Shown: in pieces, positions 1 through 24,289 of the stretch
How the letters are laid out: every line of letters begins with the position of its first letter
How positions within the stretch are numbered: the stretch's first letter is position 1
From: a virus
Direction: 5' to 3' (one strand)
DNA: 24,289 nucleotides
IMG/VR virus record: IMGVR_UViG_3300028602_001425
Span: 1 to 24,289 of that record
Program-made: the position numbers and the translations under genes
Notes under the pieces: generated by a model
What the model was told of the DNA's origin: nothing
The model's database searches: none
The model's input: only the letters and a program-made list of their open reading frames with translations

Positions 1-2
1 TT

Positions 3-5109: not shown

Positions 5110-5847
5110 ATGACGGACCATATTGACACACTAGGAACAATTGTAACAATTGATGGGATTACCATACACGGTATCGACATCGACACTATCCCGATCCCTG
5201 ACGGGGACACGGGTGACAAAAACACTTCAACTCTTGATTCAGGGACTACAATGGATAAGGGTCTTGGGATGTTTGACCCCGGAAGCGCTGAAATTACCGG
5301 GATAAAAATATCGGGAGATGCCGGACAGGCTGCATTAGTCGAGGCTTACGGAGACAGGGTTCTGCACACGTTTCAGGTCAATGTAGTCGATGCCGGGGAA
5401 GTATACGAATATCAGGGTTATGTCACAAAATTTAATCCCGGAAGCGCGGATAACACTTACAAATTCTCATCAAAGATTCTTGCATCTGGGGCTTTCAGTC
5501 TTTCGACTACCTACGCGGGCATTGACTCAATAGGGGGAGCCGGGGACGGAATTGCTTACTCTCCTGCAACTGCAAATACAGAACTTCCTTCAACTGCAAA
5601 TGATGTCATTTTCAAAGAGGCAACAGATACAACCACTGATACCGTAAAAGTGACAGCCTCTTTAGCCTCGTATATCGGCATTTCATACAATAATGGATCA
5701 ACCTGGAATACCCTCACTAGTGGGACCGCAACCGACGTGCCTGAAGCAAACTGGCCAGCCACCGGAGAACTTACGAAAGCTCTTATCAAAGTTAAGGAAA
5801 CGGGCAAAGCAACCCGATTTGTGAACCTGTTCATAGCAAGGGCTTAA
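5110..5847 (+). CDS. Major tail tube protein (lambda gpV-like) with C-terminal Ig/cadherin-like domain
   Basis: TSTLDS...GLGMFDPGSAEITG...GDAGQ...YEYQGYVTKF motifs in aa 1-130; aa ~140-245 Thr-rich beta-sandwich. Confidence 0.85.
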   Translation: MTDHIDTLGTIVTIDGITIHGIDIDTIPIPDGDTGDKNTSTLDSGTTMDKGLGMFDPGSAEITGIKISGDAGQAALVEAYGDRVLHTFQVNVVDAGEVYEYQGYVTKFNPGSADNTYKFSSKILASGAFSLSTTYAGIDSIGGAGDGIAYSPATANTELPSTANDVIFKEATDTTTDTVKVTASLASYIGISYNNGSTWNTLTSGTATDVPEANWPATGELTKALIKVKETGKATRFVNLFIARA

Positions 5848-5856
5848 GGTGGTCTT

Positions 5857-6671: not shown

Positions 6672-6683
6672 AGGCGGCTAAAA

Positions 6684-8639: not shown

Positions 8640-8642
8640 AAA

Positions 8643-11600
8643 ATGGTTACAGTTTATGTTTCCAATCTTGGGACAGATGATTATACAGTTGACGGAGATG
8701 CAGATCAGGTACAAATCAATCAAGCCCTCACTTATGCAAACACAAACGGAACACAAGCCAGTCCGGTAACAGTCTATCTCCGAGGCCCGTACACTTATGA
8801 TCTTACAGACAACCTTTTAGCCGGCTCAAACACCATCTTCACGGGAGATACCACAGCAGTATTGAGATTACATAATAGCGCAGGATGGGCACTCTGGAAG
8901 CCGTTAATAGGTCAAATATCCGGTGTAACTCCTCAAAATTTCACTTTTACAAATATTACTGTCGATGGAAATTACGCGAATCAACCCGAATTTACTGCCG
9001 GAAATTGGGGAGATGGCTATTATCCAGGGCTGTTTTTCCAGGGAACTTTAGCTAATCCAGTAAGAAATATTTCAATTCATGATGCTTTATTTAAGGGCAC
9101 TCTAACTGACGGTGTAAGGCTGTCCTATGCCGATTCTGTGAATTTTTATAATAATAAAACCGTAGAATGTATGCACGAGGGCATCTATGTTTTACGGTCT
9201 AAAAACTGTAACATCTATTCAAATTATTTTACCATCCGGACAAACTCGGGACCGAGAATATATAACTCTCAAAATGTCAAGATTTATAATAATACAATGC
9301 GTCCTTATGCCCTTAATTCGGTTGCAGGAAACTTCGGGATTCAAATAGAGGACAATCCATCAAATAAGGACATAACTCTCTATAATGTCGATGTCTATGG
9401 AAATACCCTGGTCAATTGTTGGGGCGGTGGAATCTGGCTTATTGACCTGCAAGGGACATCTACAAACAAGGCTATAAAAATCCATGATAACACAATAACC
9501 GGCTGCGGGAGAATCACAACTACAAATTATAACGCAGGAATCACGATCCAGGGTTTAAATGGAGTTGAAATTTATAATAATGTTCTGAAAGATAATTATA
9601 ACGCAGGTATTTTAATTGCTAATGCTCCGAGCGGAGGCTCAGGATATACTTATTATTACACAAATAATGTAGTTTCCGGCACGCTCGACACTCTTGCGAC
9701 ATCTTCAACTAATATAAAAACTGGTCATGGTTTTGGAGTAGTTAACAGAGTTCCTGCTTCTGTTTCTGTTATAGCTACAAATAATATAGTGAGTGCAAAC
9801 GCTAACGGAGATTATTATCAGGTTAGTAATCTTAATGATGTCCAGACAACTCCTCCGGTAAAGGTCGTTCCGGCAATCCGTATTAATGAGATTGATGAAA
9901 TTGTAGATTATTATATTCCTGGATATGTTTCGTATGTGAACGGCTACCCGGTATTGATTCGAGGCTTCGAGCCGGACACTGATGAAAGCATCGGCACAGA
10001 CAAACCTCCAGGTTGGGACGGATGGGTACTCGGAGATTTCGGCAGCGACGGAACATCAATTAATTTCAGATGTCACGCAATGGGGAAAGATGATTACAGA
10101 AGAGCAGTCGCTTCTTGGAAAAAGAAAGGGAGGGCTTATGTTGAGATCGGAGAAGACCCAGGCTGGCAGGTATCAGGGATTGTCAGAAATCATAATCATA
10201 GAATAGATAAGGACGCAGGAGACATCATGGGGGATGAATCAGCTTATGATTATAATGTTTCCTTTTATAGTGATTCTCCATTTGAGGAGACTGTAAACAA
10301 GCACGTAAGGGCTAGAAAGTTAACGTTCTCTGGGGAGCAGTGGAGCGCAGATAATACTTATGCCGGAAACATCTTAGCTAATCCTTCGTTTGAGGAATGG
10401 ACTAAGGGGGTCACTCAGACGTGGATACCTCGGACCTCTGCTTCGAGTGTAGATTTTAAGGCTGTCGAACACTCCGAAGATCTTTCACAATATTGTGCGG
10501 TGGCTCAGAATAGTATTCAAATATCCTCAGATGCGGTTTCTTGGAGTGTTCCTGGCACACTTCCTGCAAACATTTCAAACGCTTGGAAAGGGCTTATCTG
10601 GGGAGAAACTACAGGAATTGATACGGCCGCCTCTACTCTGAATTATATTCCAGTGTCGTCTGATGGATATATAATGGTATCCTCTGATAATTATACCCCT
10701 GTTTCGACTGACCTCTCAGAAGATGCAGGCATGGCTGCCGGGAGATGGGTAGCAGTCGGATACACCGCCGGAACTGCCGGAGCCGCATGGTCAATGGACG
10801 GGGATTCATGGACAGCAGGAGTCACCCCCACCGGTAATTTTGAAGGCATTTGTTATATCCGAGATGATAAAAATGGGATCTATAGATATGTTGCGGTTGG
10901 AAATAATTTAGTAATTTACTCAGACGACGGCGGAGAAACGTGGTCTTCGGTTGTTGTTTCAGGCTCATTTAAGGCAGTCTGTTATTCTACGACTCTTAAA
11001 AGATTACTTGCTGTTACCACATCTGGAGAGGTCATATATTCAGATAATTTCGCCGAAAATTGGGAGGCGGTTACTGCTCCTTCTCAGGCTTGGCAGGATG
11101 TAATCTACTCAGATACACAGAGTCTTTTCATAGTAATTTCTTCAGATGGGGGACCTCAGCAGGTCATGACCTCCCCCACAGGATTAAGTGGTTCGTGGAC
11201 CCTGCAAAACACTCCTATAGCCGGATCTATAGTTACCCCAGGCGAGGGGGATATTTCCACAGATACGAGACAGACCGATGCAGGATACGTCTACACATCT
11301 GCTGCAATGGTCTATAGTTCCGCTAATACAAGCCTCGAATGGACTTATGTACTCCCTGCTCTTACAGATGGGAGTTTCTACAGACTCGATAGGGTTTTCG
11401 GAAAATTAAGAACCCTTTTAGCTGGAAAAATAGCATACCTGAAAGTGACTATCCATGCGGCCTCTTTATATTCTGGGGTCGAAACGGATCTCATAGAATG
11501 GACTAATAACACCACAACATATTCCCAGAAGTCTTATGATCTAGCGATAGAATCTGAAACGTCTGAAACTGTAACCATCAGATTCTACATGAAAACGTCT

Positions 11601-13460
11601 GACTCTAATTATAGAGCAGCTGCAACAGATCTAGGATTTACGTTTACAGTCGCTGGAGAAACAGGCGGCGAAGTCTCTTATCTGTATAATGAATGGTCTG
11701 CGATCTCAGAAGCTCCTGACAGCGGAATTATTGTAGCAGTCGCTTCAGCAGGAGAAGATAACCAGATAATGACCTCGATAAACGCGGGAATCTGGAATCT
11801 GCAAGCATGTGATAAAGCACTTGCATCAATTTGTTATTCCGAGAGCGATATTAAGTTTGTTACCTGCGGGGCTTCAGGGGCTATCCTAACATCTAGCGAT
11901 TATGGCAGATATGCCAATCCAGATGGATGGGCAGCAGTCAATCCTGGCACTTCTCGCTCTGAGAATTCCACAACGGGAACTTATGCGCTCTTGATTACAG
12001 GAGACGGTTCTACAGATGAGCCTGGAATGATTACTCAGCCAGTCGCTTTTGAAGGCGGTGTGACTTATGCACTTACTGGAGAAGTAGAAAAAGTTGGCTC
12101 TGATGGAATCGCAGTAATTGACATCTATGCTAATGAAGAGGTTATCGCGTCTCTGGAATGGGCAAACGAGGGCACATACTCAGAAAAACAGGAATATATA
12201 AAATTTGAAGTTTCTCCCGTAGGTGCTGTCCTGAGAATTCACGGCTCGGAAACTCCTTCGGCAGGCACTCTGATGTATTTTGACCATATAGTCCTTCAGA
12301 AACTCTCTGACCTCGATATTGATGAATTCGGTTCTGGAATCCTGACAAGCGGGACAGTTGAAACGGTTCCTGATATTTCAATTGAGTCTATGGGGACGCT
12401 CGCGGGATCTGTGGAAGGAAAAGAAACACCAGGGAACTCAAAAACAAATACCGATTTGACAAATGTTGGTAGTACAGCATTTCTTACATACCAGCTTCAG
12501 GACTTTTTCAATTATACCATTTCAGGAGTAGCTGGAAAGAAATACCGGATTGACAAGGTAGGGATAAAAGGATGTGTCGCGGCTTCTGGTGGTAGATGTG
12601 ACTCAAAAATAGAAGTTTATTTAGGCTCCACGTTGGCGGGAACTTACACATTTAGTTCAACTTCTGTACTTGCTTCTTATACATCCCATTCTGCAACCCC
12701 TAACATAATTTGTGAAGCAGGGCAATCAATCTCTTTCAAGTGGTATCTTAAGTCTTCATCGACTTCGATAAGGGCTTATATTCGTGATGCTACGGTAACT
12801 TATACTGAAATCCTGAGTACACCCACAGTTAACATAGATGCAGGTATTTCAGTCTTTAACATCGAAGATCCTTTAACTGTTATGAGGTTAAGCAACAGGA
12901 TTTTCCCCGGAGTAAAAACAACAATAGCCGCAGACGGGACTGGATCTTACAGGTATCTCGAAAATTTCAAAGATTCGAGCTATCAGAGTGCAGTATTATC
13001 AAGGACGGGCGCCTCGTTTAACGAAAGTTTAAAGCAGGTTCTTTTATCTGGTAATCTGGTCTGGGAATTTGACACGCTATACCCAATAACCGGGATACCC
13101 TGGATGAATATTTATGTTGTTTCAGGAGTCCCTAAACTTGAAATTTCAGTTGATAATGTGACGTGGAGAGCTTGTGATAGTAATAATACGACTTCGATAA
13201 CCGGAGAACAGGTAACTAGGGAATTGGATAACGCAGAAAACCTGAGACTCTACGGAAAGACTAGATTTTATGTCCGGCTGTCCCCGGCTTCTGGAAATCT
13301 TACAATTGGGTCTATCAGCCTGTTTACTTACCTGATTACTATTGATGCAGAACGTCCTGTTATTTCCGCTAACGGAGAGGCTAATACATTCCAGGTCAAT
13401 ATGTCAAATAATGTCCCCTGCATTGTTTCAATGAAATACCCGGATAAACACTGGATCTGA
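8643..13460 (+). CDS. Giant distal tail protein (Dit) with N-terminal disaggregatase-like beta-helix and nested CBM/beta-propeller/jelly-roll insertions (1605 aa)
   Basis: Between tape measure and hub. aa 1-400 parallel beta-helix; aa ~430-570 Dit-like N-domain; NILANPSFEEWT (576-587) resumes at ANPDGW (1091); Asp-box repeats (e.g. SDDGGETW); C-terminus ANGEANTFQV...IVSMKYPDKHW like Dit termini. Confidence 0.85.
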   Translation: MVTVYVSNLGTDDYTVDGDADQVQINQALTYANTNGTQASPVTVYLRGPYTYDLTDNLLAGSNTIFTGDTTAVLRLHNSAGWALWKPLIGQISGVTPQNFTFTNITVDGNYANQPEFTAGNWGDGYYPGLFFQGTLANPVRNISIHDALFKGTLTDGVRLSYADSVNFYNNKTVECMHEGIYVLRSKNCNIYSNYFTIRTNSGPRIYNSQNVKIYNNTMRPYALNSVAGNFGIQIEDNPSNKDITLYNVDVYGNTLVNCWGGGIWLIDLQGTSTNKAIKIHDNTITGCGRITTTNYNAGITIQGLNGVEIYNNVLKDNYNAGILIANAPSGGSGYTYYYTNNVVSGTLDTLATSSTNIKTGHGFGVVNRVPASVSVIATNNIVSANANGDYYQVSNLNDVQTTPPVKVVPAIRINEIDEIVDYYIPGYVSYVNGYPVLIRGFEPDTDESIGTDKPPGWDGWVLGDFGSDGTSINFRCHAMGKDDYRRAVASWKKKGRAYVEIGEDPGWQVSGIVRNHNHRIDKDAGDIMGDESAYDYNVSFYSDSPFEETVNKHVRARKLTFSGEQWSADNTYAGNILANPSFEEWTKGVTQTWIPRTSASSVDFKAVEHSEDLSQYCAVAQNSIQISSDAVSWSVPGTLPANISNAWKGLIWGETTGIDTAASTLNYIPVSSDGYIMVSSDNYTPVSTDLSEDAGMAAGRWVAVGYTAGTAGAAWSMDGDSWTAGVTPTGNFEGICYIRDDKNGIYRYVAVGNNLVIYSDDGGETWSSVVVSGSFKAVCYSTTLKRLLAVTTSGEVIYSDNFAENWEAVTAPSQAWQDVIYSDTQSLFIVISSDGGPQQVMTSPTGLSGSWTLQNTPIAGSIVTPGEGDISTDTRQTDAGYVYTSAAMVYSSANTSLEWTYVLPALTDGSFYRLDRVFGKLRTLLAGKIAYLKVTIHAASLYSGVETDLIEWTNNTTTYSQKSYDLAIESETSETVTIRFYMKTSDSNYRAAATDLGFTFTVAGETGGEVSYLYNEWSAISEAPDSGIIVAVASAGEDNQIMTSINAGIWNLQACDKALASICYSESDIKFVTCGASGAILTSSDYGRYANPDGWAAVNPGTSRSENSTTGTYALLITGDGSTDEPGMITQPVAFEGGVTYALTGEVEKVGSDGIAVIDIYANEEVIASLEWANEGTYSEKQEYIKFEVSPVGAVLRIHGSETPSAGTLMYFDHIVLQKLSDLDIDEFGSGILTSGTVETVPDISIESMGTLAGSVEGKETPGNSKTNTDLTNVGSTAFLTYQLQDFFNYTISGVAGKKYRIDKVGIKGCVAASGGRCDSKIEVYLGSTLAGTYTFSSTSVLASYTSHSATPNIICEAGQSISFKWYLKSSSTSIRAYIRDATVTYTEILSTPTVNIDAGISVFNIEDPLTVMRLSNRIFPGVKTTIAADGTGSYRYLENFKDSSYQSAVLSRTGASFNESLKQVLLSGNLVWEFDTLYPITGIPWMNIYVVSGVPKLEISVDNVTWRACDSNNTTSITGEQVTRELDNAENLRLYGKTRFYVRLSPASGNLTIGSISLFTYLITIDAERPVISANGEANTFQVNMSNNVPCIVSMKYPDKHWI

Positions 13461-14652: not shown

Positions 14653-16647
14653 ATGACAGCTCAAGAATATCCAATCTCAGGAATGACAATATCTGAAATC
14701 GTGGATTCTCTAACGAATACTAGAGATCCAAATGCTCACGCGGCTTCCCACAAATCAGGTGCTACAGACGCGCTGAAACTTACGGATTTGGCGGTAGCGG
14801 ATAACGTAACTGCCAATAATGCGACAACTACAAGACCTGGACTGTGCCCTAAACTCTCCGGGACATCTACAGAATACCTTGACGGTTCGGGGGCTTGGTC
14901 AACGCCTGACGGGGGATCCTCAATCACACTCCCAGGATCATCCACAGTTTTTTATAACGGTCTGGGTGGGTGGTCTACTCCTTCAGCATCCGGCTCAACG
15001 TTTAAGCCGTATATAACGATAGGGAGAACAGGATCAGGCGCAGATTACGAATGTGACGGGACCAGTGATAACGTTCAGATTCAGAAAGCTCTTAGTGACG
15101 TGAGTTCTGGAACCCAGATTGTATTTTTGCAAGGGACTTATAATTGTACTTCCCCACTTGCTATAAATTCAAAGAGTTTGTGGTTAAAAGGCATCGGAAA
15201 CGTAACCATTAATTTTGCTCTTTCGGGATATCAGGCGGCTGCAATGCAGTTCCAGGGGTCGTCGGTACTATCCACGACTCTTTCTTCGAATGCATCAAAG
15301 GGAGCTACCTCTGTTGTACTCACGTCAGTTTCAGGAGTCAGTGCGGGACAGTTAATTGTAATTTACAATGATGTCATATGGTCAGACTATCCTGATTACA
15401 ATGATATCTGCACGGGTGAAACATACGAAATAAAATCAGTATCAGGAAGTACAGTATACCTAAGTGATCCACTTGTACGCACTTATAACACTGCTGATAC
15501 TGCCAGTGCTCGCATTTTCTCGCCTGTAGAAATTCATATGGAAAATCTTAATATAGTTGGTGACGGTGCTTCCGGCGACCAGTTGGGACTTATTGTGAGG
15601 TATGGGAGTAAAATAAGTGTCAATAGGTGCTCTTTTAAAGATAATAATCTTTCAGGAATTATTCTATACACATGTTATGATGTTGACATTTATGGTAACA
15701 GTATAAACAATTGTACATTAGACGGACTTGGGTATGGTGTGGCTATTACTACGGCATCTGCAAAAGCTAGGATCACACATAACAATATAAACAATTGCAG
15801 ACATTGCATCTCAGTTACAAGCAATAAAGCTGTTCACGGAATGAATAGGGATGTCATAATAGCAAATAACGTATGTTATGGATCATCAACGATCACTGGA
15901 GCCATCGACGCCCACCCCAACTGTATAAATTGGATGGTCGTAAATAACATTATCCATGCGGTAAACAGGGGCATTATTAACGGCGCACAGCACATGATTT
16001 GTGAGGGTAATGAATTTAGGGACATCTCAGAAGGTGCAATATTTCATAACAAAGTGATAAATTTCCCCAGGTCTGTGAAAATATCAGGTAACAAATGCCA
16101 GATGGGTGGATATTTCTACAGCGACACTTCCACTGATGATTACTCAACAGTATCAATCACAGATAACGAAATTGACGGGGGTTATATTTCTATTTATACT
16201 CCCTCATCAAAATCAAGAAACATAGAAGCAATCAACATCTCCAATAATATAATTAGAAATGTATCAGGAAAAGCGATAAATACTTACCTCGAAAATCAGA
16301 ACGGGCCTTCATATATTAATATCCATGATAACAATATCGTGGACTGTACGCAAGAAGGGATCTATGTAGATCTCGTTGTCGCAGAAAACAGTATAGTAAA
16401 TATATCAAATAATATAATTATAAATCCAAATTCATCCGCAGGAGGTTACGCGGGAATCAAGGCTCATAGAATGACATACAGTACTATTGAGGGTAATACT
16501 GTTTATGACACTGCAAGCCGTGGAGGGGCTGCAATTGCTACCGGGACAAGTTGCGATTATAACGTTGTTGTGGGTAATATTGCAAGAGGGACAACTGGAA
16601 TAAGTTTGACAGGATCAAATAACGTGTCAGAGCATAATTTATCATGA
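14653..16647 (+). CDS. Tail spike/fibre with right-handed beta-helix (putative depolymerase), 664 aa
   Basis: N-terminal fibre motifs (HAASH, GxWSTP repeats), GADYECDGTSDNVQIQKAL helix cap, inserted beta-domain (aa ~205-290), many I-x-x-N-x-I repeats to the C-terminus. Confidence 0.85.
   Translation: MTAQEYPISGMTISEIVDSLTNTRDPNAHAASHKSGATDALKLTDLAVADNVTANNATTTRPGLCPKLSGTSTEYLDGSGAWSTPDGGSSITLPGSSTVFYNGLGGWSTPSASGSTFKPYITIGRTGSGADYECDGTSDNVQIQKALSDVSSGTQIVFLQGTYNCTSPLAINSKSLWLKGIGNVTINFALSGYQAAAMQFQGSSVLSTTLSSNASKGATSVVLTSVSGVSAGQLIVIYNDVIWSDYPDYNDICTGETYEIKSVSGSTVYLSDPLVRTYNTADTASARIFSPVEIHMENLNIVGDGASGDQLGLIVRYGSKISVNRCSFKDNNLSGIILYTCYDVDIYGNSINNCTLDGLGYGVAITTASAKARITHNNINNCRHCISVTSNKAVHGMNRDVIIANNVCYGSSTITGAIDAHPNCINWMVVNNIIHAVNRGIINGAQHMICEGNEFRDISEGAIFHNKVINFPRSVKISGNKCQMGGYFYSDTSTDDYSTVSITDNEIDGGYISIYTPSSKSRNIEAINISNNIIRNVSGKAINTYLENQNGPSYINIHDNNIVDCTQEGIYVDLVVAENSIVNISNNIIINPNSSAGGYAGIKAHRMTYSTIEGNTVYDTASRGGAAIATGTSCDYNVVVGNIARGTTGISLTGSNNVSEHNLS
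14854..14982 (+). repeat. Two tandem 18-aa tail-fibre repeats
   Basis: LSGTSTEYLDGSGAWSTP (aa 68-85) and LPGSSTVFYNGLGGWSTP (aa 93-110). Confidence 0.7.
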
Positions 16648-16655
16648 TTTGTGAG

Positions 16656-16700
16656 CTGAGTAGATTTCCTACTCGGTTATTTATATTTTTAGTTATATTT
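16656..16700 (+). terminator. Probable terminator of the late operon
   Basis: Hairpin CTGAGTAG-ATTTC-CTACTCGG (16656-16676) followed by T-rich tracts; convergent junction. Confidence 0.55.
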
Positions 16701-16713
16701 TAAGGAAGGCAAT

Positions 16714-16833
16714 TTAAAGCCCTCCTTTGACTCTAATATTATCCCCACGTCTAAACATACCAACCATAGCACGAGATGTGCTTGTGTGCCTTCTTATGCG
16801 GTCAATGTCTCGTTTTAGTGTTTTTTTGGACAT
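16714..16833 (-). CDS. Small basic protein (39 aa)
   Basis: MSKKTLKRDIDRIRRHTSTSRAMVGMFRRGDNIRVKGGL; GAGGT RBS upstream. Confidence 0.45.
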   Translation of the reverse strand: MSKKTLKRDIDRIRRHTSTSRAMVGMFRRGDNIRVKGGL

Positions 16834-17051
16834 GATTTAAACCTCGCTTATATTTTCTGCTGCCTTTATCCCTTCGGGATTTGCTAAACATTTTATTCCC
16901 TCATTAATTACTCAGACACCGATTTTTTTATTTTTGTGTGATGGGTGTTCTCTCGCTTGCCGTACTGATTTTAAGTTCATTCCGAAAAGTCAGTATCTAA
17001 AATATTGCAGACTTGACGGGAAGGATGGAGCGAACTTTCAGCAGGTAGATA

Positions 17052-17186
17052 TTAGGGTTGAGAGTTGATTTTTTCATCATTTGCAGCTTCAATAAGCTTT
17101 TCTCCAACGCTCCGAAGCTTGCCTCTAATCATGCCCTCGGTTGCTCCTGCACCATCATAAGCATATGTAGCGAAGCCTGATAACGT
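17052..17186 (-). pseudogene. 44-codon ORF with ACG in the start position (start-mutated or 5'-truncated gene)
   Basis: GGAGGAATAATAA-ACG TTA TCA...: TLSGFATYAYDGAGATEGMIRGKLRSVGEKLIEAANDEKINSQP*. Confidence 0.4.
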
Positions 17187-17210
17187 TTATTATTCCTCCA
17201 AAATACATTT
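17186..17210. repeat. 25-bp gene-junction direct repeat, copy 1
   Basis: TTTATTATTCCTCCAAAATACATTT; 24/25 identical to 17705-17729. Confidence 0.9.
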
Positions 17211-17339
17211 CTTCAACGTCTGAAGATGTTCAATACATATTGAGAAATTAGGTGTCGATTCGAGTCTGAGGATATCATTTATTATCCCGACGGATTCCGC
17301 TCTTGAGAGCGTTATTTTAATTTGTCGTTCGATTTTCAT
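17190..17339 (-). CDS. Hypothetical protein (49 aa)
   Basis: MKIERQIKITLSRAESVGIINDILRLESTPNFSICIEHLQTLKKCILEE; ATGA overlap with the upstream gene. Missed by the ORF track. Confidence 0.65.
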   Translation of the reverse strand: MKIERQIKITLSRAESVGIINDILRLESTPNFSICIEHLQTLKKCILEE

Positions 17340-17704
17340 CCACTCATCCACCTATTAACCTCTTCAGCCCCACGAATATATTTTAACTTACCACATAATT
17401 TAATTTTCACATCTGCTCCTAACGTCATTGTATCCAATAACTTATAATCTATAATTTTGCCTTCATAAATCCATGTGTAAATATCTGCAATTTTTACCGT
17501 ATATTCATGAATTTCATTATCTGAATGTGCTGAGGTGTCTATAATTCGTTGCCCTTCGTCTCCTAAAATTGTATTATATGTCAGTCTTGCGGTTTCAGTG
17601 CGCATATACGGAACAGGTATTCCATCTAAATGAATGCCGGTAATTTCAATCCCGTCCACATACACTTTTATTTTGCCGTAGGGGTCAATTGGATCAACTA
17701 ACAT
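17336..17704 (-). CDS. Tail-tube-protein paralog lacking the long polymerisation loop and Ig domain (122 aa)
   Basis: Aligns by eye to the 5110-5847 product: 16 of 28 identities over TTP aa 3-30, and ARLTYNTILGDEGQ vs AEITGIKISGDAGQ; GGAGGT RBS. Confidence 0.8.
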   Translation of the reverse strand: MLVDPIDPYGKIKVYVDGIEITGIHLDGIPVPYMRTETARLTYNTILGDEGQRIIDTSAHSDNEIHEYTVKIADIYTWIYEGKIIDYKLLDTMTLGADVKIKLCGKLKYIRGAEEVNRWMSG

Positions 17705-17729
17705 TTTATTATACCTCCAAAATACATTT
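17705..17729. repeat. 25-bp gene-junction direct repeat, copy 2
   Basis: TTTATTATACCTCCAAAATACATTT; contains stop codons and the GGAGG RBS on the minus strand. Confidence 0.9.
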
Positions 17730-17927
17730 TAATAAACCTCCTTCGTACTTTATCCTGTTCTCTTTAATAAGTTCCTCTAAACAGTGCACAACGTTTTCTG
17801 ATTTAGAGTTGTTAGGGCAATGAAGTGCTAGTTCGTATATGGAGATTCCACTATCAAACGACTTGATTGTGAAATATATATACATTTTTAAATGAAAATG
17901 TTTAATCTTTTCGATAATGTTTGACAT
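17709..17927 (-). CDS. Small winged-helix DNA-binding protein (72 aa)
   Basis: GISIYELALHC...ENVVHCLEELIKENRIKYEGG helix-turn-helix plus wing pattern. Confidence 0.6.
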   Translation of the reverse strand: MSNIIEKIKHFHLKMYIYFTIKSFDSGISIYELALHCPNNSKSENVVHCLEELIKENRIKYEGGLLKCILEV

Positions 17928-18073
17928 GTGTTAATATCATCCCCGTTTCTACAATTTCCATCTTCCATTACTTTCCCCATAAAATAAAATGATTCGATAT
18001 TCCCACATACCCAGTTTTTTCCTTGCATGAGTCCAGGCTGCCGCCAGTGGATACATGCCCCACATGACCCCAT
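17888..18073 (-). CDS. Cys-rich small protein (61 aa), CxxCxHW...C...C
   Basis: Start reassigned to ATG 18073 (GAGGGG RBS): MGSCGACIHWRQPGLMQGKNWVCGNIES...; overlaps the next gene by 40 nt. Confidence 0.6.
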   Translation of the reverse strand: MGSCGACIHWRQPGLMQGKNWVCGNIESFYFMGKVMEDGNCRNGDDINTCQTLSKRLNIFI

Positions 18074-18081
18074 ACCGCCCC

Positions 18082-18210
18082 TCAGTCGTCTGTTTCTTCG
18101 TCTGGCTCTGTGAATGTTGAATCCTCGCAATCGTACATATGCGGGCAGTCTAGGCAACTGTCCCACAGGCATATACCAGTATATGAGAGGTTATCAGTTT
18201 CGGAGGACAT
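18082..18210 (-). CDS. Cys/His-rich acidic microprotein (42 aa)
   Basis: MSSETDNLSYTGICLWDSCLDCPHMYDCEDSTFTEPDEETDD; GAGG RBS. Missed by the ORF track. Confidence 0.6.
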   Translation of the reverse strand: MSSETDNLSYTGICLWDSCLDCPHMYDCEDSTFTEPDEETDD

Positions 18211-18240
18211 TTTAAGCCTCAAAAATATAATTAGGGAGGA

Positions 18241-18525
18241 TCATGCGATCCTTTCCCCTCCGAGAAGCACAATTTCAGATCTATTCGGGATATACATGGC
18301 ATTTTTCTCGAAAGGCTCCTCATCGTCCCCGCCGTCAACTGTCATTTTATAGACATCCTGCAGGCATCCGAGATCGGTTCTTTGATCTTTTCTGAATATA
18401 TTATCATGCCATCTTCTTACTTTCCCGTAGAAAGTACAGTTTTTTACATCCGCGTTTCTCTTCTGAACCCACGCTTTCGCGATTGGTTCGCTTGGTGCTA
18501 CAACTTGGATTTGTATTTCTGTCAT
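18241..18525 (-). CDS. Hypothetical protein (94 aa)
   Basis: First gene after promoter repeat copy 1; AGGAGCCA leader. Confidence 0.7.
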   Translation of the reverse strand: MTEIQIQVVAPSEPIAKAWVQKRNADVKNCTFYGKVRRWHDNIFRKDQRTDLGCLQDVYKMTVDGGDDEEPFEKNAMYIPNRSEIVLLGGERIA

Positions 18526-18578
18526 GTTTGTGGCTCCTTTGAACTTTAGTTATCTTAACGCAGGACACTATTCTAGCC

Positions 18579-18621
18579 CTGTATATAGTAATAGTACATT
18601 ATACTATTTATAGTTTACTGT
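18579..18621 (-). promoter_or_regulatory. 43-bp promoter repeat, copy 1
   Basis: CTGTATATAGTAATAGTACATTATACTATTTATAGTTTACTGT; the minus strand reads GTAAAC-TATAAATA (BRE-like + TATA); 42/43 identical to 19222-19264. Confidence 0.8.
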
Positions 18622-18631
18622 AGTCGGTTTG

Positions 18632-18638
18632 AAAAAAA
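18632..18638 (-). terminator. Oligo-T7 archaeal-type terminator
   Basis: T7 on the minus strand immediately after the 18639 stop and before the next promoter copy. Confidence 0.4.
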
Positions 18639-18935
18639 TTAATTATGCAAAATATAAGTTATATCCTTATTTTTAAAATCGATCCCAATTGAAGAAGGAT
18701 TCCCTCTGTAATTTATTTTACACGTCCAAACGTGATCTTTAGAAGATATTTTTATTTTGGACTCTGATATAAGGGATACACCTAAAATTACTGTGCATGT
18801 TTTCCATTTAGATTTCGTTAATTTCGGGTATCCGTTTTGATCTGTTTTTGAATATCCGTACTCTTCTTCTGGTTTTATTTCGAGAGTCATATCCGAAGAG
18901 TGAGTCCATTTTTTACTGTCTGAAGGTCTTGCCAT
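18639..18935 (-). CDS. Hypothetical protein (98 aa), possibly tandem AbrB/DUF2080-like swapped-hairpin domains
   Basis: Two similar segments, SKTDQNGYPKLTKSKWKTCTVILGV and CKINYRGNPSSIGIDFKNKDITYIL; family call weak. Confidence 0.55.
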   Translation of the reverse strand: MARPSDSKKWTHSSDMTLEIKPEEEYGYSKTDQNGYPKLTKSKWKTCTVILGVSLISESKIKISSKDHVWTCKINYRGNPSSIGIDFKNKDITYILHN

Positions 18936-18957
18936 TGATGGAACCTCTAAAAATTGG

Positions 18958-19194
18958 TTATGGGTCCTCGGAGTATTCCGTCAGTTCAGCAACCGATTGG
19001 AATTCCTTTATGGCATATTTTACAAAATGCAGTTCGCTTTCTATGTGGATTATTTCCAACACAGCAGGAGAGTAATCTAGTGATACCGCATTTACAGGGA
19101 TTTCTTTTATTTCTGATATCAGTTTGTCAAGCTTCTTCTTTAGTGTGTTCAGCGTATCAATCAGGGTTTCTTGTGATTCATTTGTAAATTCCAT
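18958..19194 (-). CDS. Helical coiled-coil protein (78 aa)
   Basis: AGGTGA RBS; first gene after promoter repeat copy 2. Confidence 0.65.
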   Translation of the reverse strand: MEFTNESQETLIDTLNTLKKKLDKLISEIKEIPVNAVSLDYSPAVLEIIHIESELHFVKYAIKEFQSVAELTEYSEDP

Positions 19195-19221
19195 GTTTGT
19201 TCACCTGTTTAAACCGTTACT

Positions 19222-19264
19222 CTGTATATAGTAATAGTACATTATATTATTTATAGTTTACTGT
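19222..19264 (-). promoter_or_regulatory. 43-bp promoter repeat, copy 2
   Basis: CTGTATATAGTAATAGTACATTATATTATTTATAGTTTACTGT; TATAAATA at 19255-19248. Confidence 0.8.
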
Positions 19265-19321
19265 CATGTAACAAAAACTGCTGCGCAGTTCGCCTGGATA
19301 AATTACTTTCATATGTGAAAA

Positions 19322-19329
19322 TTTATATA
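19322..19329 (+). promoter_or_regulatory. TATA box of the DUF1699 operon
   Basis: GTGAAAA-TTTATATA, ~50 nt before ATG 19378. Confidence 0.55.
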
Positions 19330-19377
19330 CAACTAAAAATAATTAACAGTGATAAAAACATTAAGGAGCCATCCCAA

Positions 19378-19782
19378 ATGCAAATAAAAGTAATATCAGG
19401 ACGGGACGAGATCCCTCTATTATTGCCAAATGAAAAAATAGTCCATATCGGATTTAGACCTTCAAACGCTGATATATATAGTGTCTGTGAATCCTGCCCG
19501 AAAATAGAGGCAATACAAGTACCGCCGTCGTATTTCGTCAGCATTTCAAAATCTATTCAAACATTTCTCAGAATGCAGAAAATACAACTGTTAGAGGGAG
19601 ATGTAGGAGGGCACAGGAAAGACCTGCATCCTTATTATGTTGTTCCCTCTTATATCACTGAAAAAATCAAAGAAATGAAAGAAGACGGAACAAAACCGGA
19701 CGACATTGTTAAATTTGTGTCAAGACTGCATAGAATGAGTGAGCCGTTAGCCGCTTATGTTGTGCAGTCTGTGAAGGTGTGA
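19378..19782 (+). CDS. DUF1699 family protein (134 aa)
   Basis: MQIKVISGRDEI...EKIVHIGFRPSNADI...CPKIEAIQVPPSY...ISKSIQTFLRMQKIQLLEGDVGGHRKDL, recognised as the Methanosarcinales DUF1699 pattern; start moved to ATG 19378 (AAGGAG RBS). Confidence 0.85.
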   Translation: MQIKVISGRDEIPLLLPNEKIVHIGFRPSNADIYSVCESCPKIEAIQVPPSYFVSISKSIQTFLRMQKIQLLEGDVGGHRKDLHPYYVVPSYITEKIKEMKEDGTKPDDIVKFVSRLHRMSEPLAAYVVQSVKV

Positions 19783-19784
19783 AA

Positions 19785-19943
19785 ATGGTACACATGATAC
19801 GATCAGATGAGTTTAATGATAATGAAGATGAACAAAAAATAGTATCATTGGAAGAATATAATAAATTCATGGAGTTAGCTGCTAAAATGGGGATTGCTGC
19901 AATCACATTAAATTATATAATTTTTATAAAATGGGATGTCTAA
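19785..19943 (+). CDS. Small protein (52 aa), acidic N-half and hydrophobic C-terminus
   Basis: MVHMIRSDEFNDNEDEQKIVSLEEYNKFMELAAKMGIAAITLNYIIFIKWDV; AAGGTG RBS. Missed by the ORF track. Confidence 0.55.
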   Translation: MVHMIRSDEFNDNEDEQKIVSLEEYNKFMELAAKMGIAAITLNYIIFIKWDV

Positions 19944-19948
19944 ATTCC

Positions 19949-19982
19949 TTTACTCTTTTAATTCTTTTTTTTTAATTCTTTT
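19949..19982 (+). terminator. Oligo-T terminator
   Basis: Several T-tracts including T9 at 19965-19973 right after the stop. Confidence 0.5.
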
Positions 19983-20039
19983 ACTGATATATTAATTATA
20001 GGATGTTGCACATATCACATAATAACAGGGAGTTATAAT

Positions 20040-21458
20040 ATGGCAACATTAACACTAACACCAGGCACTTTTAAACAGTCAACTTTTGATAAAGTCGGTG
20101 ACGGTTTTCAGTATGACACTATCCACTTAAAACCGGGAGCCTATACCGCATCTCTCCCCTATAAATTAAATTCTGGGACTACAATTACAGCCGATCAGGG
20201 AGCAATAATTACCCTGATTCCGAATGCTTCAGAATCTCTTTTTCCCTCGATGCGGCCAATCTTCGGACAGGTTAAAAATACTATCCAAAATATTGATATT
20301 TCAGGTTTGACAATTGATGGGAACAGTGGCCGGCAGACAGTGCCCTCTGGAAAAGGTTTTCATAATGCGTTTTGGTTTCAACGTTCTGAAAATATTAACA
20401 TTCACGATTTGACAGTCCAAAACTCGCTGGGGGATGGGCTAAGAATCACCGACGGGAAAAACATTACATTCGCAAGAAATAAAGTTCTCCGTTGTGGCCA
20501 TGATGCGGTTTACTGCGACGGAGCGGATACAGTAGACGTTTTTAACAATTATGTTGAACTGAGAGTAAATTCAGGCTGTCGGTTGAGACATACCAAAAAC
20601 GGGCACGTTTATAATAATTACATAATTAATAAAAATGGGGGGGCAGCATCAAGCCCAGGCATGCAGATCGAAGTCTCAACGGCGGGAATGTCCTCCAAAA
20701 ATATCCTGATAGAAAATAATGAAATAAGAGGGACTTGGGGGCCGGGTATTTGGGTTATTGGGCTTGTGAATTCTAATATTTCAGCAGCTACCGGGCTGAC
20801 AATAAGAAATAATCTATTTTACGATTGCGGCAACATGGACGGGTCTTATCACCATATACCAGGAGTGGGCGGCATTGTTGCGGATGGTTGGGATAAGTTA
20901 GATGTCTCTTATAATACTTTTGATAAGTGTCTCGGTTATGGGGTTTCGCTTGGGCCTTATGTCTCGGCTACTCCTGCGGGGAAAGGATATAGTGCGAAGA
21001 TCTACAGAAACATTATAACGAATACTCAGAAGTCGAATGAAGTCGGGACGGCATCAGGGGCGGCCATTGCTAATCTTGTGCAGGATAGATATACATCTGT
21101 TGAAGTCTATGAAAACTGTACTTATGGGAATGTTCGGAATTATTACGGAGTTTCGCCGTCCAAGGAGATCCTCTCAGATCCTCTCTATGCCGGGGATGGA
21201 GATTATCATCTGAAATCTACAGCAGGGCGGTATTCGGGCTCTCAGTGGGTCATGGATGATGTAATGAGCCCGTGTATATTATCTGAATACGAGCTAGGCA
21301 TGTATGGAGGGACTTCTGAAGCATCTCGGTATACTGCTCTACCTGTCGAACCGGAACCCGTACAAACTGTTTATGTTGTGATTCCCTGCGAGAGTGAGGA
21401 AAGCGCGAAACAAACTGCTGACGGGCATGAGGGTGCGTTTATAATCTATCGAAAATGA
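20040..21458 (+). CDS. Free-standing disaggregatase-like parallel beta-helix protein (putative polysaccharide depolymerase), 472 aa
   Basis: PSMRPIFGQ, GKGFHN, GDGLRI, GHD, RVNSGCRL, PGMQIE, GPGIW and DYHLKSTAGRY...SPCI motifs, as recalled for Methanosarcina disaggregatase-related proteins; no signal peptide. Confidence 0.85.
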   Translation: MATLTLTPGTFKQSTFDKVGDGFQYDTIHLKPGAYTASLPYKLNSGTTITADQGAIITLIPNASESLFPSMRPIFGQVKNTIQNIDISGLTIDGNSGRQTVPSGKGFHNAFWFQRSENINIHDLTVQNSLGDGLRITDGKNITFARNKVLRCGHDAVYCDGADTVDVFNNYVELRVNSGCRLRHTKNGHVYNNYIINKNGGAASSPGMQIEVSTAGMSSKNILIENNEIRGTWGPGIWVIGLVNSNISAATGLTIRNNLFYDCGNMDGSYHHIPGVGGIVADGWDKLDVSYNTFDKCLGYGVSLGPYVSATPAGKGYSAKIYRNIITNTQKSNEVGTASGAAIANLVQDRYTSVEVYENCTYGNVRNYYGVSPSKEILSDPLYAGDGDYHLKSTAGRYSGSQWVMDDVMSPCILSEYELGMYGGTSEASRYTALPVEPEPVQTVYVVIPCESEESAKQTADGHEGAFIIYRK

Positions 21459-21467
21459 GGTTTTTCC

Positions 21468-21611
21468 ATGAATCCGGTTTGTGGGGTTTGCGGGCATTTT
21501 AGACCGGATTCAGATTTCCCTTTTTTATTTGGGGAATGTACCGTGAAGGGGCGGTATGTTGCGTTTTATTCAATTTGCGATTTGGGAAAATGGGTTGAAA
21601 AAGATAATTAA
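21468..21611 (+). CDS. Cys-rich microprotein (47 aa), CxxCxHF...C...C
   Basis: MNPVCGVCGHFRPDSDFPFLFGECTVKGRYVAFYSICDLGKWVEKDN; GAGGT RBS. Missed by the ORF track. Confidence 0.65.
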   Translation: MNPVCGVCGHFRPDSDFPFLFGECTVKGRYVAFYSICDLGKWVEKDN

Positions 21612-21636
21612 CGGTTTAAATCTAATTTACCGGTTA

Positions 21637-21894
21637 TCACAACATATTAACCGGCTGTCCTTCTTTCAGTAAAAACCTATTATTCTTCACCTGTTCTTCC
21701 CAATTCCCGACTAAAAAGAAAGTTTTACCACCTCTCAATTTTATTCCCTTGAGTTGGGGGGGGAAATACCTTGCAACGCATCCTGGGAGGCCACCGTCAT
21801 AATCAGGATAACGCGGGTCTAATATTTTTTCGATTCTGCACCACCCATAAGGGCCTTGTTTTCTCCATACTTGCCCTACTTTGATTCCGTCCAT
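21637..21894 (-). CDS. Hypothetical protein (85 aa), SH3-like N-terminus
   Basis: IKVGQVWRK...CRIEKI pattern; directly downstream of the RHH gene. Confidence 0.65.
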   Translation of the reverse strand: MDGIKVGQVWRKQGPYGWCRIEKILDPRYPDYDGGLPGCVARYFPPQLKGIKLRGGKTFFLVGNWEEQVKNNRFLLKEGQPVNML

Positions 21895-21901
21895 GATTTA
21901 T

Positions 21902-22072
21902 TCACTCTTGTTTCCTCTTTTTCTTCATGCTTTCATACTCATCTAAAACCCTATCAAGCGCATCATTAAAGGATTCTCCATACTCGATTTTACCATATTT
22001 TGTGATTCTCCCTTTGTTCCGAATAGTTACCCTTTGTAACGTTATTTCTTCGGGGTCTTTGTTTTTTACCAT
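21902..22072 (-). CDS. Ribbon-helix-helix-like DNA-binding protein (56 aa), candidate repressor
   Basis: MVKNKDPEEITLQRVTIRNKGRITKYGKIEYGESFNDALDRVLDEYESMKKKRKQE; beta-strand plus GESFNDALDRVLDE helix. Missed by the ORF track. Confidence 0.65.
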   Translation of the reverse strand: MVKNKDPEEITLQRVTIRNKGRITKYGKIEYGESFNDALDRVLDEYESMKKKRKQE

Positions 22073-22160
22073 GCGGTATTATACGTTAATGCTGTATATA
22101 TAGTTTATGGCGTTAACGTTATTAATAATGTTTATATAGGTTGAGTGTGTATACTTACTT
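22073..22160. promoter_or_regulatory. Divergent promoter pair with repeated CGTTA boxes
   Basis: Minus-strand TATATATA (22095-22102) 23 nt before ATG 22072; plus-strand TTTATATA (22131-22138); CGTTA at 22084, 22111 and 22117. Confidence 0.65.
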
Positions 22161-22202
22161 GCTAAGATGTGAGAAAAACAGAGAAAAGACAGGAGCCAAA
22201 AC

Positions 22203-22265
22203 ATGAGATTATTCAACAGAACAAAACTAAGATATGTATCAAGACATCATTTTAAGAGACTTTAA
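22203..22265 (+). CDS. Basic micropeptide (20 aa)
   Basis: MRLFNRTKLRYVSRHHFKRL with AGGAGCCA leader; first ORF of the rightward transcript. Confidence 0.4.
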   Translation: MRLFNRTKLRYVSRHHFKRL

Positions 22266-22274
22266 GATAATAAT

Positions 22275-22340
22275 CCAGCCTGCCTCCTCCTCAGGCTGGT
22301 CATAATGTCGTTTTAGCGGGTTCAAGTCCCGTGAACGGCT
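22275..22340 (+). ncRNA. Hairpin + tRNA-like minihelix, unit 1
   Basis: CCAGCCTG/CAGGCTGG stem with CCTCCTCCT loop; 7-nt spacer; GTCGTTT-TA-GCGGG-TTCAAGT-CCCGT-GAACGGC-T. Confidence 0.5.
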
Positions 22341-22419
22341 GAAGGTGATATAAAAAGAAGGAACCACGATAAGAAGAACAGACCGGGAAACACGAAATCA
22401 AATCTATCTTTGAGGAACA

Positions 22420-22498
22420 CCCCTGCTTTTAAGCCGGCAGGGGCCTAAATGTCCATGTAGTATCAGACTAACAACGGGTTAAAATCCCGGCATGGGCT
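22420..22498 (+). ncRNA. Hairpin + tRNA-like element, unit 2
   Basis: CCCCTGC/GCAGGGG stem; 7-nt spacer; GTCCATG-TA-14 nt-ACGGG-TTAAAAT-CCCGG-CATGGGC-T. Confidence 0.5.
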
Positions 22499-22531
22499 TA
22501 TTATTCTTTTTAAACAGTTCGGAGCCACGAT

Positions 22532-22816
22532 ATGAAAAAACCTATCCTAAAAACACTGTCGGGGAATCCAATCGAAAAACAATTAGTCTTTAATTTCCTC
22601 CCCCTTGAAAACGGGGCAAAAGGGGCACTTGACCACATTGAAAAAACTATAAATGTGTCGAAAGTTCCAAATCAAAAAACAGTATTTAACGTTGAAATTA
22701 ACTATGAATGTCCCCCACAAGTTGATTGCATCATTTCAGCTTATTTGATGCTGTGGGATGACGTGAAAAGCCTTACATGGTGCGGGACAAGAATATTCCC
22801 ACGAGAAGAATTTTAA
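22532..22816 (+). CDS. Hypothetical protein (94 aa)
   Basis: ORF track; GGAGCCA leader. Confidence 0.7.
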   Translation: MKKPILKTLSGNPIEKQLVFNFLPLENGAKGALDHIEKTINVSKVPNQKTVFNVEINYECPPQVDCIISAYLMLWDDVKSLTWCGTRIFPREEF

Positions 22817-22838
22817 GAAAGTTCAACGGAGCCAAACA

Positions 22839-23009
22839 ATGTCAGACGAAGAAATGAGTTATGAAGATAGATTATTAGCTGCTTTTGAATCGAATGCAAA
22901 GTATCTTCAGAGTATCGCGGAATCCCTTAAAATTCTGGCAGCTAAGCCAGTCCCAGGAATAACCCTTGAAGTGTCTCCTGAACTCCTCGATCAACAGGAG
23001 GAGGTTTGA
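22839..23009 (+). CDS. Hypothetical acidic helical protein (56 aa)
   Basis: MSDEEMSYEDRLLAAFESNAKYLQSIAESLKILAAKPVPGITLEVSPELLDQQEEV; GGAGCCA leader; TGATG coupling to the next gene. Missed by the ORF track. Confidence 0.65.
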   Translation: MSDEEMSYEDRLLAAFESNAKYLQSIAESLKILAAKPVPGITLEVSPELLDQQEEV

Positions 23010-23155
23010 TGGCAGGATATAATCAAGCAGCTGCGGTAGATGCTCTTATGGCAGCGGACGAGACCGAAAAGAGGTTTTGTGGTTTTTGTGGGAAACCGTT
23101 CGACGTCGAGATTGAGAGCGGGGAAAGTAACTGTCCAGAGTGCAGGGAGGACTAA
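23009..23155 (+). CDS. Zinc-ribbon microprotein (48 aa), CxxC...CPxC
   Basis: ...KRFCGFCGKPFDVEIESGESNCPECRED; AGGAGGAGGT RBS. Missed by the ORF track. Confidence 0.7.
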   Translation: MAGYNQAAAVDALMAADETEKRFCGFCGKPFDVEIESGESNCPECRED

Positions 23156-23157
23156 AT

Positions 23158-23601
23158 ATGACCCCTGAAGAAATCAATACCAGGATGAATATCTTGTTAG
23201 GTCTTCGCGGATTTTCAATTGTGAAATTGACCGACAAAACCGCCATGTGGCGGCTGCTTTCAGATGATGAGTTAATCTTAGATGTCACATTCCCTCCAAA
23301 ATTGTGGGAAGTCAAGCACAAGGGGAAATCATGTGGAATTGAAAGCGGAGAAATTCCCGGCCCTACAAAAAATATGATAGACGCGCTTATAGAGGACTTT
23401 GAGGCGGCATGTAATCAGGATGTTCATCCCTCCGAGAACTCTGAAGAATATCAAATTGAGTCCTTTGAAGAGCCCGAAGAATATCCTGAGGATGAGACGC
23501 CGAGCAGGATAAAACTGAGTGATGAAGATCTTATCAAAAAACTTGATGAGATTATTTTGAACCCCGGACCAGCAGATAAAACTTTGTGGGTGAAATTATG
23601 A
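23158..23601 (+). CDS. Hypothetical protein (147 aa) with acidic linker
   Basis: Start moved to ATG 23158 (GGAGG RBS). Confidence 0.7.
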   Translation: MTPEEINTRMNILLGLRGFSIVKLTDKTAMWRLLSDDELILDVTFPPKLWEVKHKGKSCGIESGEIPGPTKNMIDALIEDFEAACNQDVHPSENSEEYQIESFEEPEEYPEDETPSRIKLSDEDLIKKLDEIILNPGPADKTLWVKL

Positions 23602-23948
23602 CCCCGGTATGCATGATTGAAGTACATGACGGGCTCCTTGTATCAGAGGACAAAGTGATGATGAAAGCCCGGTGCCCTGAACTGTTCCCGGCAAACATAC
23701 AGGCATATTTCCAAGACAAGGAAAAGATAAGCTCAAAAAAAATTGATTTTGGGATTCATAAGGTACGAGTATGCACGGAATCAAGGCGGGCTGTGTATGA
23801 TACAAAATTGATTTTGTATGTAAAGTCATTGGGAAAAATTGAGTATTACCTCTCAAACGTGAAGCTGCCTTGCGAGGAAGGGGAATATTACACACTCTTT
23901 GCGAAATATAAGTATGGGTGGTGTGTGGTTGCGCCGTTGGATGGGTGA
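23598..23948 (+). CDS. Hypothetical protein (116 aa)
   Basis: ATGA overlap at 23598-23601. Confidence 0.65.
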   Translation: MTPVCMIEVHDGLLVSEDKVMMKARCPELFPANIQAYFQDKEKISSKKIDFGIHKVRVCTESRRAVYDTKLILYVKSLGKIEYYLSNVKLPCEEGEYYTLFAKYKYGWCVVAPLDG

Positions 23949-24265: not shown

Positions 24266-24289
24266 GTGGCTAAAAATGATTATTCTCAA

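Follow-up and report, generated by a model that had tools for sequence, protein, structure and literature searches.

A loop-truncated, separately encoded tail-tube-fold family of methanogen viruses: a candidate modulator of tail-tube assembly

The IMG/VR virus record IMGVR_UViG_3300028602_001425, analysed here over its full length of 24,289 nt (hereafter the window; completeness estimate 43%), encodes, in addition to its major tail tube protein (TTP), a 122-aa protein, P0001, whose gene is on the antisense strand outside the late operon, 11.5 kb downstream from that of the TTP. This protein represents a new and unnamed accessory branch of the tail-tube fold, with a truncated loop, that occurs in methanogen viruses, and interference with, or modulation of, tail-tube assembly appears to be the best single reading of its function, if a tentative one. 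The host is inferred to belong to the Methanosarcinales, because the window encodes Disaggr_assoc and DUF1699 domains and a relative of the TTP is found on a 124-kb contig of a Methanosarcinales metagenome-assembled genome (MAG). The two genes on which the argument turns are:

17336..17704, minus strand: short tail-tube-fold paralog P0001, 122 aa (homology, fold, dN/dS, family)
5110..5847, plus strand: major tail tube protein, lambda-gpV-like, 245 aa (phrog_158 match, gpV-like model, synteny)

The TTP comprises a tube domain of about residues 1-135 followed by a C-terminal immunoglobulin (Ig)-like domain. It matches phrog_158 'major tail protein' (E 1e-8), some of its full-length relatives weakly match the Phage_TTP_12, Phage_tail_2 and Phage_TTP_11 models, and its gene is positioned after the connector and tail-completion genes and before the chaperone-like genes and the tape measure. 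An AlphaFold model of the TTP (predicted local distance difference test, pLDDT, 82.7) matches lambda gpV (7t4f_A) over the full length, including the C-terminal Ig domain (Foldseek E 7.5e-10). In this model strand beta2 spans residues 17-19 and strand beta3 residues 59-65, with the stretch between them modelled at low confidence (pLDDT 58-68).

The open reading frame (ORF) of the paralog opens with an ATG preceded by a GGAGG motif 8 nt upstream, and no plus-strand ORF longer than 44 aa competes with it. BLASTP aligns it to the TTP with 31 identities in 111 positions (E 1e-6; ~30-37% identity to the TTP tube domain), and a single 23-residue gap opens opposite TTP residues about 32-54. Profile-profile comparison by hhalign of an alignment of the short family (A3, 13 sequences) with one of the TTP family (A4, 20 sequences) returned a probability of 97.8% (E 6.9e-13) over 107 columns, with the same gap. 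When mapped onto the TTP model the gap falls between beta2 and beta3, i.e. in the beta2-beta3 'long loop': the link retained by the paralog has 16 residues, including the conserved IPxP base, versus ~39 in the TTP, and 23 of these ~39 residues are missing in all 13 family members. The Ig domain is likewise absent, the protein ending before it. These comparisons confirm at the sequence level that the paralog is a true homolog of the TTP tube domain. They also reproduce two observations of an initial annotation of this stretch, namely that the accessory ORF aligns with the virus's own TTP, with the 16 identities claimed for the N-terminal block, and that it lacks about 23 loop residues along with the whole C-terminal Ig domain. 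None of the 13 family members matches the Pfam TTP models Phage_TTP_12, Phage_TTP_11, Phage_tail_2 or Phage_tail_3 at E <= 1, nothing above noise was recovered from PHROGs, Pfam or PADLOC for the paralog or its small neighbors, and tblastn of the paralog against 50,697 phage records gave no match. The short family is unnamed, and is represented by neither a Pfam nor a PHROG model.

The structural evidence points in the same direction, in agreement with the tail-tube fold supposed in the initial annotation. The AlphaFold model of the paralog (pLDDT 75.8, predicted TM score 0.70) contains strands at residues 12-16, 19-21 and 38-44, a helix at 50-62, and strands at 66-72, 76-90, 96-111 and 114-118. 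The order of these elements is that of the TTP and corresponds to the canonical tube fold, a ~8-strand antiparallel beta-sandwich with one alpha-helix. All of the top 20 Foldseek matches of the model, with E values from 3e-4, are tube proteins or Hcp, and the structures matched include lambda gpV, YDC107, RcGTA, monocin, pyocin and PVC/AFP tubes as well as Hcp. VIA comparisons with tube proteins gave Z 12-13 at an rmsd of 2.4-2.6, paralog residues 3-114 being placed on residues 7-156 of lambda gpV with 108 residues aligned, and the ESM Atlas neighbors of the paralog are Phage_TTP_11/12 clusters (TM 0.72-0.76). Even in compact solved tubes of 130-136 aa about 30 residues remain unaligned to the paralog in VIA, and its loops are therefore shorter than those of the smallest solved tubes listed. 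The predicted fold thus places the paralog in the tail tube fold superfamily (gpV-N / Hcp / gp19-like).

HMMER, run exhaustively on 1.84 billion representatives, recovered ten further proteins of 119-142 aa with 34-54% identity. An eleventh match, P0048 (6164 aa, E 9e-9), was rejected as a summed-repeat artefact, as it consists of D/T-rich cadherin-like repeats, ~40 of them scoring <=7 bits each. The short family as now defined has 13 clusters of 118-142 aa, and the loop is short throughout. Positions P32, A39, G51, Q52, I84, Y87, L103 and G105 are invariant; the DG turn, IPxP and GDxGQ are motifs common to the TTPs and the short family and invariant, and LCGKFKY.R and W.Y.GKI..YK are invariant motifs specific to the family. 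Close copies on other contigs are 84-87% identical to the paralog and the reading frame is intact in every one of them; comparison of the window with these copies yields a dN/dS of 0.18-0.21 at dS about 0.43. The gene is under purifying selection.

In a maximum-likelihood tree of tube domains the 13 short proteins form one clade with 100/100 support, joined to 35 TTPs by a stem of ~2.9 substitutions per site, and the branches inside the short clade are longer than those of the TTPs. As it forms a separate, fully supported clade on so long a stem, the short family is, on this phylogeny, an old sister family, and did not arise by a recent deletion of the loop from the TTP of this virus. The original description of the gene as a loop-deleted TTP paralog can therefore be kept in as much as the protein is homologous and loop-short, and has to be given up in as much as it implied a copy of this virus's TTP. 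Loop-less homologs, which that description had proposed to look for in other Methanosarcinales proviruses, do exist in the form of the 13-cluster family; however, none was found in 284 species genomes of the order to which the provirus-bearing Methanosarcinales MAG G003 belongs, a result uninformative for viruses, and in G003 itself, as in the genome G004, the short-family profile matched only the TTP. A profile scan of genome contigs with the close-family alignment likewise found no relative, which says nothing on absence in viruses. One family member (locus L011, a 5-kb contig of GCA_028681655.1) is encoded ~500 nt from a host-like UbiA/CinA gene and converges on its other side on a 387-aa tail-type gene, a context that may represent a provirus end or an assembly chimera. 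The 159-aa ORF that follows it was considered as a second paralog and rejected (hhalign probability 2.9%).

Comparison with related viruses shows the paralog gene to be part of a variable, mosaic island that separates the tail genes from the DUF1699/replication side. The gene order 78, 98, 94, 72 and then 123 aa is also present in G001 (L001/L013), a 71-kb complete record with an integrase elsewhere, in which the structural and replication genes (RecT, MCM) are on one strand and the paralog unit forms the main opposite-strand block. Window positions 17337-19775 are 93% identical in DNA to G001, and this identity stops exactly at the stop codon of the paralog. The second close relative, G002 (IMGVR_UViG_2667528052_000001; L020-L022), is a complete genome of 56,152 nt with a 99-nt direct terminal repeat and no match to a tyrosine integrase, and resembles the window instead in the structural genes (positions 1-8640, 90% DNA identity); it would be the natural reference genome for this virus group. 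Between the window and G002 the TTP is 93% and the paralog 86% identical, whereas between the window and G001 the paralog is 87% and the TTP 52% identical (P0023, apparently the TTP of G001). The identity of the paralog does not track the divergence of the TTP, and it therefore travels with the island and not with the tail. Such independence from the TTP of the same virus is easier to reconcile with an accessory factor of broad action than with a fitted virion component.

Three further IMG/VR relatives (G289, G290 and G291) possess the same tail set, including a TTP of 49-53% identity, the chaperones, the tape measure protein (TMP), the ~1600-aa and ~390-aa proteins and a disaggregatase-like protein. 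None of them has the short paralog, with 13-36 kb of sequence downstream of the TTP in each; the small genes that they have past the tail module are different ones, of which several in G290 are antisense. Since three relatives have the same tail module without it, the paralog is an accessory and not a core virion part. That such a tail is built in its absence also argues against a required structural role, for instance as the missing distal-tail (Dit) ring, and we rejected the latter as a required role on these grounds. Elsewhere, the family member at L010 converges on ~385-aa and ~1650-aa tail genes, and at L026 a 501-aa gene, a Mu-F-like gene, DUF1699 and a disaggregatase lie downstream of the family member. 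The immediate neighbors are otherwise unconserved across the family loci, comprising zinc-ribbon, hexapeptide-repeat and Mu-F contexts.

These observations acquire functional meaning from what is known of siphovirus tubes, and here the literature agrees with the initial annotation's account of the beta2-beta3 loop. The long loop gives most of the inter-ring contact, and its deletion abolishes tube formation in T5 or ring-to-ring growth in SPP1, while long-loop mutants of lambda and SPP1 are dominant negative (PMC9022992, PMC8718954). In YSD1, loop deletion in the TTP results in free hexameric rings (PMC8718954). Prophages and satellites of bacteria are also known to carry tail-assembly blockers, as the initial annotation had pointed out: Tab, from a Pseudomonas prophage, targets the tape measure protein (PMC10884400), and Tai, from phage-inducible chromosomal islands (PICIs), prophages and P4-like satellites, targets the central tail fibre or needle (PMC11364771). 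Some blockers of the Tab/Tai type are paired with an antidote made in the lytic cycle (PMC10884400, PMC11364771).

The paralog retains the beta-sandwich/alpha-helix core from which rings are formed, without most of the loop that makes ring-to-ring contacts. Given this ring-forming core, the truncated loop and the mutant literature, it is predicted not to stack into a tube alone. It might still engage assembly intermediates, whether it joins a TTP ring, lies against one or sits at the growing end, and tube polymerisation could thereby be slowed, capped or poisoned. The tail most likely to be targeted would be that of a relative that co-infects or superinfects; that the virus tunes its own tail assembly in this way is a less likely possibility. 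It is this predicted failure to stack, taken together with the accessory and separately transcribed position of the gene, that makes interference or modulation the best single reading. The narrower proposition, that the paralog is a structural mimic which caps or poisons tube polymerisation of competing viruses, is more doubtful.

Several points weigh against such a role. The identity of only ~30-37% to the TTP tube domain is that of an old family, and the family's own invariant motifs suggest a function that evolved within it more than plain mimicry. In the window's paralog the N-terminal arm, the element that accommodates the next ring's long loop, is TTP-like, but across the family it is poorly conserved and variable, and it is missing in P0046 and P0047; the specific 'cap' geometry proposed initially is weakened accordingly. 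As G002 has terminal repeats and no integrase match, a lysogen-protecting role is not obvious there, and as the family was not found in the 284 species genomes there is no sign of a resident prophage gene. An assembly poison acting in the virus's own lytic cycle would further need timing control or an antidote. Moreover, the alignment from which the paralog was folded is dominated by TTPs, and only two of the five models were confident. Complex prediction of TTP(1-135) with the paralog, using their own alignments, scored 0.00 in both runs, which were made without controls and provide no evidence either way.

The plus strand of the window carries a siphovirus late operon, whose elements other than the TTP gene are as follows:

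up to ~3.6 kb, plus strand: capsid-region block
4055-5105, plus strand: connector, tail-completion and neck genes
5857-6671, plus strand: two chaperone-like genes
6684-8639, plus strand: tape measure (TMP)
8643-13460, plus strand: 1605-aa tail protein, disaggregatase-type beta-helix, right after the tape measure
plus strand, late operon: 395-aa YqbQ-like tail protein
14653-16647, plus strand: 664-aa beta-helix tail spike
16654-16678, plus strand: hairpin and T-run, directly after the last tail gene (stop 16647)

The hairpin and T-run probably mark where the late operon stops; the antisense unit converges on this end. The paralog is accordingly outside the late operon and on the opposite strand, just as first described. 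Three beta-helix proteins are encoded in the window (8643-13460, 14653-16647 and 20040-21458), two of them with Disaggr_assoc (disaggregatase-related) domains: one is the 1605-aa tail protein and one a free-standing protein of 472 aa that adjoins DUF1699. A DUF1699 and disaggregatase pair is seen again near short-family members at L001 and L026.

A 43-nt repeat opens a small antisense unit in which a 94-aa ORF comes first, two small Cys-rich ORFs and then a 72-aa ORF follow, and the paralog is the last full-length gene, with only a 49-aa ORF after it. In the direction of transcription the elements are:

19222-19264, minus strand: second copy of the 43-nt repeat, 42/43 identical, upstream of a minus-strand gene
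18579..18621, minus strand: 43-nt promoter-like repeat containing TATAAATA (minus-strand reading), ~55 nt before the 94-aa gene
18241-18525, minus strand: 94-aa ORF, opening the unit that contains the paralog; no family match
about 18082-18210, minus strand: small acidic Cys-rich ORF of about 42-46 aa, C-x4-C-x2-C; no family match
17888-18073, minus strand: CxxC ORF of about 61 aa, its end overlapping the start of the 72-aa ORF; no family match
17709..17927, minus strand: 72-aa ORF, directly upstream of the paralog with a 4-nt gap
17705..17729, no strand assigned: 25-nt direct repeat, copy 2, comprising the last codons and stop of the 72-aa ORF and the GGAGG ribosome-binding site (RBS) of the paralog
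17190..17339, minus strand: 49-aa ORF, its ATG overlapping the TGA of the paralog (ATGA)
17186..17210, no strand assigned: 25-nt direct repeat, copy 1, comprising the 3' end of the 49-aa ORF, GGAGG and stop

Both copies of the 43-nt repeat are 95% conserved in G001 (L001), and are probably duplicated archaeal promoters that define two short transcription units. An oligo-T run follows the 98-aa gene that lies between them. The two Cys-rich ORFs (17888-18210) are absent as such from the default ORF list. The 72-aa ORF is also called in L001-L005 and has a weak, winged-helix-like match to SelB-wing_2 (E 0.007, below the cut-off). An Rfam scan of window positions 16000-24289 found nothing. A 70-nt element at 17002-17071, itself without an Rfam match, is 85-94% conserved in L001/L002, L005 and G002 and is always found just past the last tail-module gene or just past the paralog.

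The initial annotation had further placed the gene inside a repeat-flanked cassette. The two 25-nt repeats are indeed present at 17186-17210 and 17705-17729, but a cassette does not follow from them. In G002 the gene immediately ahead of the paralog is a 96-aa ORF, composed of a CxxC half and a second half ending in KCILEE. The window has these two halves apart, the CxxC half ahead of the 72-aa ORF and the second half persisting beyond the paralog as the 49-aa ORF. The 49-aa ORF corresponds to the C-terminal half of the G002 ORF, with 97% nucleotide identity to G002 11976-12129, is absent in L001 and L005, and was probably left behind by recombination. After it come the 25-nt repeat, then ACGTTA, where the paralog has ATGTTA, and then 107 nt without a match (window 17079-17339); this segment has the look of a recombination scar, or of what is left of a second unit of small ORF plus paralog. 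The 72-aa and 49-aa ORFs were rejected as full paralogs of each other, only their last 13 residues being alike. Judged by these alignments, the 25-nt repeats are the shared 3' ends and RBS of two alternative upstream genes, and their arrangement is better read as a recombination scar than as the ends of a mobile cassette.

A possible, though on the whole unlikely, alternative to interference is that the paralog has been neofunctionalised and uses the tube fold for a task unconnected with the tail tube, such as that of an Hcp-like ring serving another viral or host protein as chaperone or carrier, or of a scaffold for one of its small neighbors. The long separate evolution of the family and its specific invariant residues favor this, as do the presence of Hcp proteins of 120-130 aa among the structural matches (Z 10-11), the capacity of the loop-less YSD1 TTP to form free rings (PMC8718954) and the differences in neighbors (zinc-ribbon, hexapeptide-repeat or Mu-F) between family members. 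However, no conserved partner gene was found across the family loci, and the invariant motifs shared with the TTPs (DG turn, IPxP, GDxGQ) suggest that tube-type contacts have been retained.

Tube-fold domains have been reused in Dit, hub and neck proteins. Such reuse lends general plausibility to the notion that the paralog is an optional virion or assembly component, i.e. a non-stacking ring present once per tail as an adaptor, initiator or terminator in those viruses that carry it, which we nonetheless consider unlikely. The L026 family member, on the same strand and upstream of a Mu-F-like head gene, would be in keeping with it, and a lead is provided by small ESM Atlas feature-neighbor clusters in which 11-24% of the members have GpP-like_1st, Sipho_Gp37 or Prophage_tailD1. 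Set against these are the relatives with the same tail module and no paralog, the lack of sequence co-variation with the TTP, and the placement of the gene on the opposite strand, outside the late operon and among small non-structural ORFs.

It is still less probable that the paralog is an anti-defence decoy, an early-made TTP mimic that would occupy host sensors of tail tube proteins without activating them. No TTP-sensing system is known to us in Methanosarcina, though no search aimed at one was made, and at 30-37% identity to the TTP the paralog would be a poor mimic of surface epitopes; nor was a match to an anti-defence family found, PADLOC covering defence models only. The location in an accessory island, in a transcription unit apart from the late genes, is what lends the idea some substance, and independence from the cognate TTP sequence would fit a target other than the TTP. 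Defence systems that sense tail tube proteins have been described, e.g. DSR2, as cited in PMC11364771, and a preprint on STAND receptors reports the sensing of core phage proteins. Finally, that module exchange left the paralog behind as a non-functional remnant of a TTP gene, as might be imagined from a heavily mosaic island with such clear leftovers as the 49-aa half-ORF and the 107-nt orphan segment, is very improbable and effectively refuted by the selection and family data, namely a dN/dS of about 0.2 at dS about 0.43 with an intact frame in every copy, and 13 clusters of similar length with invariant residues, to which the RBS and the tight coupling to neighboring genes can be added.

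Tail-tube proteins are among the best-understood self-assembling parts of viruses. Nature appears to keep here, as a selected accessory gene, a form resembling the loop deletions made in the laboratory, which are dominant negative or yield only rings. If interference with assembly is indeed its function, inter-virus competition by blocking of assembly would extend to the archaea, and would include a principle new to it, in which the target is mimicked by its own paralog. If the paralog specifically caps or poisons the tubes of competitors, archaea would gain their first system of virion-assembly interference, which would also be the first anywhere to act through mimicry by a tube-subunit paralog. 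Should it turn out to have some other function, the tube/Hcp fold would still have gained a new and compact branch. The literature searched, which is of limited coverage, contained no account of a truncated TTP paralog encoded apart from the TTP and acting in this way, and PADLOC 2023, which holds defence models only, has no match for the paralog.

Among known systems, the closest in structure is the N-terminal tube domain of lambda gpV (Phage_TTP_12/Phage_TTP_11; 7t2e, 8k36, 8iyk), which has the same order of elements, b1 b2 loop b3 a1 b4-b7, and compares with the paralog at VIA Z 12.1-12.7 and an rmsd of 2.6, the gpV-like TTP family being homologous by profile. Unlike gpV, the paralog has a long loop reduced from ~39 to 16 residues and no Ig domain, and is an accessory protein encoded outside the late operon. 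The Hcp proteins, which form tubes or chaperone rings in type VI secretion, are comparable in size (120-160 aa), have the same fold at Z about 10-11 and lack long stacking arms; in contrast to them the paralog has no type VI secretion context, shares no sequence similarity with Hcp and is closest to siphovirus TTPs. The engineered loop mutants of gpV, SPP1 gp17.1, T5 pb6 and YSD1_22 likewise combine a defective or missing loop with an intact tube domain. These are laboratory changes in a structural gene, whereas the paralog is natural, separately encoded and long diverged. With Tab and Tai the likeness is in the proposed outcome only, in that both are accessory genes of mobile elements that stop the tail assembly of other phages. 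They are, however, bacterial and not described as homologs of the proteins they block, while the protein considered here is archaeal and is a paralog of the very subunit that it would affect.

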